From positions 20,537-84,536 of the forward strand of contig JAKEHU010000006.1 in NCBI GenBank assembly GCA_022614855.1: a stretch of 64,000 bases of DNA, in the 5' to 3' direction. Source of the DNA: Chlamydiota bacterium. Lineage in GTDB: Bacteria > Chlamydiota > Chlamydiia > Chlamydiales > Rhabdochlamydiaceae. The translations under genes were made by a program, and so were the position numbers. Under the pieces are notes generated by a model, which was not told where the DNA came from, ran no database searches, and saw only the letters and a program-made list of their open reading frames with translations. Positions 812-1,631 of this stretch are shown here, one piece after another (position 1 is the stretch's first letter; each line of letters opens with the position of its first letter).

Positions 812-1363
812 TCATGATAGCGTACCATATTTGAAAAAATGGATAAGCTGGTCCTTATCAATCTTTCTATCAGCAATGTCTATCACAATTTGTTCCAGAT
901 TTTCTATTTTAAACTTGATAGAAACTCGATTAATTTTCAAAAAAACCAATGCAATAACATATGCTGTTCTCTTGTTTCCATCATTAAACGGATGATTTCG
1001 TGTGAGATGATACAAATATACTGCGGCTTTCTCATAGACTGAGCAATAGATTTCTTTTCCACAAAATGATACTTTTGGAGCTTCTAAGAATGTGTTTACA
1101 AAGTATCATTCTAGAAATTTGAAGGAGATTTTGATGAGATTTTATCCCATTGAGCGAAGACAATATCGGGACGATGATATGGCTGAGCGAAATGGGATAA
1201 AATATCGCAAAAATCTCCTCAAAGGTCAAAATGAGACTTTGTAAACACATTCTAATGCTGAATGAAGAAGATTATAGTCTCGTATTCCAGAAAGACCACC
1301 GAATTTTTTCAACAAATCATCGTGAATTGAAATGACTTGGCTGGCCGTAAAATACTTGATCAC
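812..1363 (-). pseudogene. doc: doc (death-on-curing, Fic-fold) toxin gene interrupted by a 165-bp MITE
   Basis: A GTG at 1363 overlaps the antitoxin stop (GTGA). The N-terminal part reads MIKYFTASQVISIHDDLLKKFGGLSGIRDYNLLHSALE. The C-terminal part (812-1084) reads APKVSFCGKEIY..HLTRNHPFNDGNKRTAY, which is the Fic/Doc motif. Removing 1088-1252 plus one TAA restores a 127-codon ORF. Confidence 0.85.
1088..1252. mobile_element. MITE-like palindromic insertion (family D) inside doc
   Basis: It has perfect 17-bp terminal inverted repeats (GAATGTGTTTACAAAGT / ACTTTGTAAACACATTC). A 3-bp direct repeat TAA flanks it at 1085-1087 and 1253-1255. The interior is also palindromic and there is no plausible ORF. 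Confidence 0.85.
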
Positions 1364-1596
1364 TTATCAGCAAGCCTTTTTAGAGCATCTTTATTATTCT
1401 CAATAATTGAATCCATAACAGATTTAAGTTCACTATCTGATATATTGATTTCTTTGAGCGCGGTCGATACTCGAGAACGAATATATTCTTGCAATGTAAC
1501 TCCTTCGAGGGCAGCAATCGCTTTTAATTTTCTATGCTGGACAGTGGGAAAATCAACTGTAACCCTAGTTACTTTTTTACGTCTTTTAGTTCTCAT
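1360..1596 (-). CDS. Ribbon-helix-helix antitoxin (Phd/ParD-like) of the doc module
   Basis: It encodes 78 aa with VTVDFPTVQHRKLKAIAALEGVTLQEYI, an RHH-like N-terminus. Its stop overlaps the doc GTG start, and a GGAGG sits 5-9 nt upstream of the ATG. Confidence 0.7.
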   Translation of the reverse strand: MRTKRRKKVTRVTVDFPTVQHRKLKAIAALEGVTLQEYIRSRVSTALKEINISDSELKSVMDSIIENNKDALKRLADK

Positions 1597-1615
1597 CTCA
1601 TAGCCTCCATAAAAA

Positions 1616-1631
1616 ATATCAGTATATCAGT
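1616..1631. promoter_or_regulatory. Tandem 8-mer (ATATCAGT x2), candidate antitoxin operator
   Basis: An exact direct repeat lies about 20-35 nt upstream of the antitoxin start codon. Confidence 0.3.

Follow-up and report, generated by a model that had tools for sequence, protein, structure and literature searches.

Introduction

The phd-doc module of phage P1 pairs an antitoxin with Doc, a Fic-fold kinase of EF-Tu (PDB 3K33, 3DD7). The locus described here resembles that module in the size and fold family of its toxin, in the Doc-type motif H-x-F-x-D-G-N-K-R, in an upstream antitoxin gene whose stop codon overlaps the toxin start, and in a repeat operator at the promoter, which in our case is a predicted one. 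Unlike in P1, the antitoxin is a ParD-like ribbon-helix-helix protein and not a Phd/YefM-like one, the toxin gene is interrupted, and identity to P1 Doc is low.

The interrupting DNA has parallels of its own. MITEs derived from insertion sequences are known in bacteria from the Correia elements of Neisseria, the pneumococcal RUP and the cyanobacterial Nezha, and PIF/Harbinger with its Tourist MITEs constitutes the eukaryotic relatives of the IS5 family and duplicates TWA. The insert described below shares with the bacterial elements a short, non-coding sequence, terminal inverted repeats, a target duplication of fixed short length and a high copy number per genome, with most copies intergenic and an occasional gene disruption. 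It differs from them in duplicating TWA (3 bp) instead of TA, in forming, over its whole length, one long hairpin with co-varying arms, and in residing in a chlamydia-like bacterium. Palindromic elements also occur within genes of Rickettsia, where the reading frame stays open and target duplications are not known to be formed. In the literature that we searched, we found no papers on MITEs in Chlamydiae and none on MITE-disrupted toxin genes of toxin-antitoxin pairs.

Here we analyse a 64-kb stretch of DNA, hereafter the window, which corresponds to positions 20537-84536 of contig C7 in a draft genome (G000) of 1.5 Mb, 44 contigs and 99% completeness. A preliminary description had proposed that a doc toxin gene in this window was split by a non-autonomous element while its antitoxin gene remained intact. 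We examined both genes, the element and its relatives, and the possible origin and age of the insertion.

Results

A 165-bp palindromic element interrupts doc

The insert occupies positions 1088-1252 of the window and has no assigned strand. Its first 17 bp (GAATGTGTTTACAAAGT, 1088-1104) are the exact reverse complement of its last 17 bp (1236-1252), and with a single mismatch tolerated complementarity reaches 23 of 24 positions (1087-1110 against 1230-1253). On either side lies a TAA triplet, read directly from the sequence: the upper copy at 1253-1255 and the lower copy at 1085-1087, which on the minus strand reads TTA and encodes Leu37 of Doc. The insert, with its perfect 17-bp repeats and a TAA on both sides, thus agrees base for base with what had been claimed for it. 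The 17-mer occurs exactly twice in the window, once per strand, while shuffled sequence yielded a mean of 0.28 matches even at up to three mismatches. The element is predicted to fold into a single long hairpin of -71 kcal/mol (z = -14.4 against shuffles). Its matches in Rfam were to plant microRNA precursor models, lay far below thresholds and reflect hairpin shape only, and were discarded. The longest internal ORFs, of 50 and 72 aa, have no Pfam match, and inspection of the copies revealed no conserved ORF in the element family. With its short length, terminal inverted repeats, target duplication, lack of a transposase gene and occurrence at multiple unrelated sites, the insert has the properties of a MITE, consistent with the proposal that a non-autonomous element splits doc.

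Both parts of doc are on the minus strand. The 5' part (1256-1363) comprises codons 1-36 from a GTG start at 1363-1361 and by itself matches Fic positions 1-38, and the 3' part (812-1084) comprises codons 38-127 plus the stop codon and by itself matches Fic positions 54-93 (E = 3.5e-12). The frame that opens at the GTG runs through 37 native residues and eight codons of the element (ECVYKVSF) before it reaches a stop, leaving an interrupted N-terminal piece, the 45-aa ORF at 1226-1363; this is the truncation eight codons into the insert that the preliminary description had reported. It had also placed the part with the Fic motif below 1085, where we found HPFNDGNKR within the ORF at 812-1015. 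The earliest start codon after the insert is the TTG at 1015, which gives only 67 residues and lies just ahead of this motif, so that the longest pieces of doc that are left measure 45 and 67 aa.

Insert and one TAA together amount to 168 bp, or 56 codons, and since this is a multiple of three, the doc frame is preserved downstream. Such an arrangement would be expected if the palindrome were tolerated in frame within a longer functional protein, in the manner of the Rickettsia palindromic elements, which the insert also resembles as a palindrome of ~100-170 bp, of a length divisible by three, in a protein-coding gene of an obligate intracellular bacterium. However, the doc frame meets three stops within the insert, no frame in the doc orientation is open across it, and, as set out below, none of 149 Doc homologues has an insert at this site. 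The three in-frame stops and the clear TAA duplication also set the element apart from its Rickettsia counterparts, and we regard a tolerated in-frame insertion as extremely improbable.

Removal of the element restores a full-length Doc

When 1088-1255 are removed in silico and 812-1087 are joined to 1256-1363, a single open frame of 127 aa results. The joined protein matches the whole of the Fic/Doc model PF02661 (70.9 bits at a cut-off of 24, model positions 1-93 of 93) and most of TIGR01550 DOC_P1 (60.9 bits at a cut-off of 38.65, positions 5-116 of 122), and P1 Doc (PDB 3K33) matches its residues 4-110 with E = 1.2e-11. A search of a large protein collection returned 149 homologues. The best of these are 126-130 aa long and 66-72% identical at a query coverage of 96-100%; several are named death-on-curing toxins and come from Parachlamydiales or Chlamydiae metagenome-assembled genomes. 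The alignment is gapless at the junction (...LLHSALE|APKV...), and an insert at this point is absent from all 149 homologues. None of the 16 invariant or 14 nearly invariant positions is changed in the restored protein. Among 14 aligned Doc sequences, F70, D72, N74, K75 and R76 are invariant and H68, P69, N71 and G73 nearly so (90% or more), and the Doc-type active-site motif H-x-F-x-(D/N)-(A/G)-N-K-R is present as HPFNDGNKR. Over the 384 nt of doc we found no second lesion.

The colinear 127-aa Doc that had been predicted upon deletion of the element and one TAA was thus obtained, complete over the Fic/Doc model. The preliminary description had made its case depend on an end-to-end alignment of the excised product with Doc homologues, and since the restored frame aligns with them over its full length, it withstood this test; it had likewise asked whether the 165 bp might be part of a longer functional protein, which the three stops and the uninterrupted homologues speak against. 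Removal of 1088-1255 rebuilds the conserved gene exactly and in this way provides a presumptive empty site. Judged from its sequence, the locus is a well-preserved doc pseudogene made by MITE insertion and not a working toxin gene, and we infer that the Doc toxin is dead. It is the only Doc locus in the 44 contigs of the genome.

Two further observations were made among doc homologues of other genomes. In G088 (L077, C3:570600-571900) and G122 (L078, C1:797400-798600), doc homologues lie in two frames, apparently through a frameshift, next to single-frame antitoxin genes, which could reflect parallel toxin-first decay or a homopolymer error in the assembly. In G019, a ~68% identical doc homologue is split between the ends of two contigs (L079 and L080, at the starts of C157 and C78) with residues 56-63 missing, and a repeat inside the gene may have broken the assembly there.

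The antitoxin gene is intact and preceded by a probable operator

Upstream of doc, the minus strand carries an intact gene for a ParD-like ribbon-helix-helix antitoxin of 78 aa (1360-1596). The protein scores 30.8 bits against PF09386 (cut-off 27.3) and matches PDB 2AN7 (ParD) with E = 1.9e-5, on the strength of which a Phd-like identity was rejected. It is 59-72% identical to antitoxins encoded upstream of intact Doc homologues. Close homologues have 88-90 aa, and the antitoxin of the window lacks, in frame, ~8 residues of their basic, Lys/Arg-rich N-terminal tail but is otherwise colinear with them to the last residue, in line with the earlier statement that a ribbon-helix-helix antitoxin was left intact. 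It is present in a single copy in the genome. Its stop codon overlaps the doc start in the sequence GTGA, and the order of antitoxin and then Doc, with the overlap, is conserved at L010, L011, L013, L014, L016, L019 and other loci in related genomes and metagenome contigs. The pair therefore shows the hallmarks of a type II toxin-antitoxin system, namely a small antitoxin gene upstream, translational coupling and a pairing kept in relatives. Its neighbours are genes for a penicillin-binding protein and a sugar-nucleotide epimerase, one on each side.

At 1616-1631 the sequence ATATCAGT occurs twice in tandem, reading ACTGATAT ACTGATAT on the coding (minus) strand. A promoter-like site overlaps this repeat, with a -35 element TTCGCA at 1649-1644 and a -10 hexamer TATACT at 1626-1621 that is preceded by TG and lies inside the repeat. 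Two to three tandem copies of ACTGATAT are also found upstream of homologous antitoxin genes at three other loci (L010/L011, L013 and L014), where they have the same spacing to the Shine-Dalgarno sequence as in the window. The remaining upstream DNA of these loci is unrelated, and their antitoxins are only 59-72% identical to that of the window. Conservation of the repeat within otherwise unrelated upstream DNA supports its interpretation as the antitoxin operator, which had been put forward as a putative one; we consider it a probable operator.

Another palindromic MITE, from an unrelated family with ends TAACCTGAGTTTTG, lies at 1690-1862 of the window, ~40 bp upstream of the -35 element of the toxin-antitoxin promoter, and takes up most of the gap to the epimerase gene. 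The cluster to which it belongs has seven copies in the genome, and a sister cluster has another seven.

The element belongs to a superfamily of mutually related hairpins

The closest copy of the doc element in the genome is intergenic and 94.5% identical (C41:2495-2659), and ~22 further diverged copies at 65-75% identity bring the total to ~24. All have termini of the form GA[GA]nnTGT...ACAnn[TC]TC, and in most the flanks are identical TAA or TTA triplets in direct orientation. Of 121 genomes from the same family of bacteria, 19, representing 10 of 40 genera, contain a strict version of this superfamily pattern; the control had zero matches. In all strict-pattern matches but one the flanks are direct and not inverted, which identifies them as true duplications and not as part of the palindrome. 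In a scan of representative genomes, the terminal repeat of the doc subfamily gave 12 single matches in unrelated phyla, which were taken as chance.

When 11 copies are compared, compensatory double changes are seen in 25 of the 57 stem pairs, a count that overstates the number of independent events because the copies are mutually related. Between the two youngest copies, the doc copy (C7:21624-21788) and the one on C41, nine of 165 positions differ, and four of these nine constitute a paired swap of GC/GC to AT/AT at element positions 67-68 and 100-101. The genome as a whole contains ~293 repeat loci of 160-185 bp, which belong to many families and make up 3.1% of its DNA. With so many elements of this size class and no matching transposase (see below), a hairpin-dependent route might operate, in which the hairpin itself, and not the terminal repeats alone, would be maintained and recognised and would spread or be homogenised without an IS5-type enzyme. 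We consider this unlikely; if it were true, the doc insertion would record a hairpin-dependent event rather than classical cut-and-paste.

Members of this 160-185 bp class are often found at contig ends, and in a draft of 44 contigs this raises the question of whether the split gene is an artefact of assembly or binning, or a minority population variant fixed by the assembler by chance. A mis-join would not give an exact 3-bp duplication or perfectly colinear gene halves. In addition, one public record of the locus was retrieved with the exact antitoxin protein sequence; it is on a contig that differs in length, and it also carries the insert. Being 100% identical over 4,596 bp, this record is not independent and may share source data. 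Taken together, we judge an artefact to be very unlikely.

An IS5-family transposase is a candidate for mobilisation in trans

Within the genome, there was no match to the transposase models PF01609 (DDE_Tnp_1) or PF13359 (DDE_Tnp_4), and self-comparison revealed no full-length insertion sequence. DDE_Tnp_1 genes are present in 80 of the 121 family genomes. Among the loci retrieved from these, two compact insertion sequences have matching ends: an 866-bp IS5-family element in G051 (L053 1478-2343, contig C1; terminal repeat GAGCCTGTTTAAAATCTT, 18/18 positions) and an 848-bp one in G066 (L073 85-932, contig C4; terminal repeat GAAGCTGTTTTAAAACCT), both with TTA/TTA flanks. They belong to two related genera, encode DUF4096 and then DDE_Tnp_1 in two overlapping frames, and match NCBIfam NF033580 (IS5 family). 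A tblastn search of the window's genome with both transposases gave no match. The L053-type element is present in at least 24 copies in G051.

The ends of these insertion sequences have the form GA[GA]nnTGTTT...AAA with a TTA duplication, which resembles the design of the MITE superfamily. The agreement is closest for a sister MITE subfamily in the window's genome (contig C14, GAAGCTGTCTTAAAAC), which matches the L073 ends at ~15 of 16 positions, while the ends of the doc subfamily match the insertion-sequence ends at only ~12-13 of 17. Duplications of 3 bp with the sequence TWA are also made by some members of the IS5 family and by PIF/Harbinger-Tourist, the related system of eukaryotes. The doc element thus resembles the two-frame IS5 type in its ends and in its 3-bp TTA or TAA duplication, and full-length examples exist in related genera; it differs in that it has no transposase gene, its host genome lacks the family, and the match of its ends is partial. 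As no matching transposase is found in the genome, the link to IS5 is drawn from insertion sequences of other genera that have similar ends and make the same duplication. On this basis we propose, with moderate confidence, that the element was mobilised in trans by an IS5-family enzyme of the DUF4096 plus DDE_Tnp_1 type. Because IS5-type elements are absent from the genome, the doc insert is probably now immobile.

The insertion in doc is the only one deep in an open frame

For each of the 24 copies, we removed the element in silico and looked for open frames across the junction. The doc copy alone lies deep inside a frame, with 36 codons on one side of it and 91 on the other. Other copies are intergenic, just upstream of a start codon or within 37 codons of a frame end; one non-doc copy lies 55 codons into a frame of 67. 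This distribution fits purifying selection against insertions into genes, with exceptions where loss is harmless or helpful.

At four places in the genome (C28:29999-30178, C8:8141-8464, C30:25-188 and C22:5248-5415), copies of the superfamily sit in the last 1-8 codons of long frames. Their position suggests that TAA stop codons may be favoured targets, and elements of the superfamily may rewrite C-termini.

Age of the insertion

The insertion had been called recent and precisely datable. This could not be upheld, since the nearest copy is only 94.5% identical and neither a matching transposase nor an empty allele was found. No natural empty allele came to light: neither the joined empty site nor a stretch of doc beside the insertion had an exact match in the metagenome contigs scanned. 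The relatives compared all come from outside the genus, and the closest Doc homologues lie in non-syntenic surroundings and so provide no orthologous empty site.

Restored Doc has nine private substitutions at otherwise conserved positions, among them G-to-C, P-to-C and K-to-Y, and eight intact homologues have 1-9. The doc halves thus show no clear decay but give no clock. Against great age speak the perfect repeats and duplication together with the lack of a second lesion; against a very recent jump speak the missing transposase and the 5.5% by which the element differs from its nearest copy.

These considerations bear on the possibility that the split is old and the locus a decaying relic, in which the antitoxin has merely been spared so far and neither toxin loss nor antitoxin retention was selected. 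In its favour are the nine differences from the closest element copy, the failure of our genome searches to return a transposase, and a count of private Doc substitutions at the top of the range of intact homologues. It is less easily reconciled with terminal repeats and a duplication that are still perfect, with 384 nt of doc in which the conserved residues are all kept, and with an intact antitoxin gene and operator. The frameshifted doc homologues beside single-frame antitoxin genes in G088 and G122 would fit toxin-first decay, with the caveat that frameshifts in assemblies can be sequencing errors. We therefore view an old, unselected split as the less probable explanation, but as one that deserves more weight than any other alternative considered here.

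Discussion

The course of events that we favour begins with a MITE that would have been moved in trans by an IS5-family transposase making 3-bp TWA duplications. The element entered doc at the TTA that encodes Leu37 and duplicated this target as TAA/TAA. As a consequence of the three in-frame stops, translation from the coupled GTG would end after 45 residues, and the catalytic part has no start codon before the TTG. If the predicted antitoxin promoter and tandem-repeat operator are still functional, the locus would make an orphan, self-repressing antitoxin. Loss of the toxin would cost nothing, or might even help, as long as the antitoxin remains, and this would explain why the insertion in doc is the sole mid-gene insertion of its family to persist. 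We consider this account as a whole, that is, a MITE insertion killing Doc, an orphan antitoxin, mobilisation in trans by an IS5-type enzyme and tolerated toxin loss, to be highly probable.

As the knock-out of a selfish toxin by a mobile element, the locus is a clean case but an ordinary one, and it opens no long-standing question. For annotation, the gain is that the locus can be described as a doc pseudogene with an orphan ParD-like antitoxin, and the conserved tandem ACTGATAT repeat, as a putative operator, defines the predicted binding site of this antitoxin family. The comparison of ends and duplications suggests that a widespread MITE superfamily of chlamydiae is linked to small IS5-type elements that duplicate TWA. 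Collectively, our data point to a mobile element that has disarmed a toxin-antitoxin module at its toxin, as a textbook-clean example, in an environmental chlamydia-like lineage in which such repeats have been little described.
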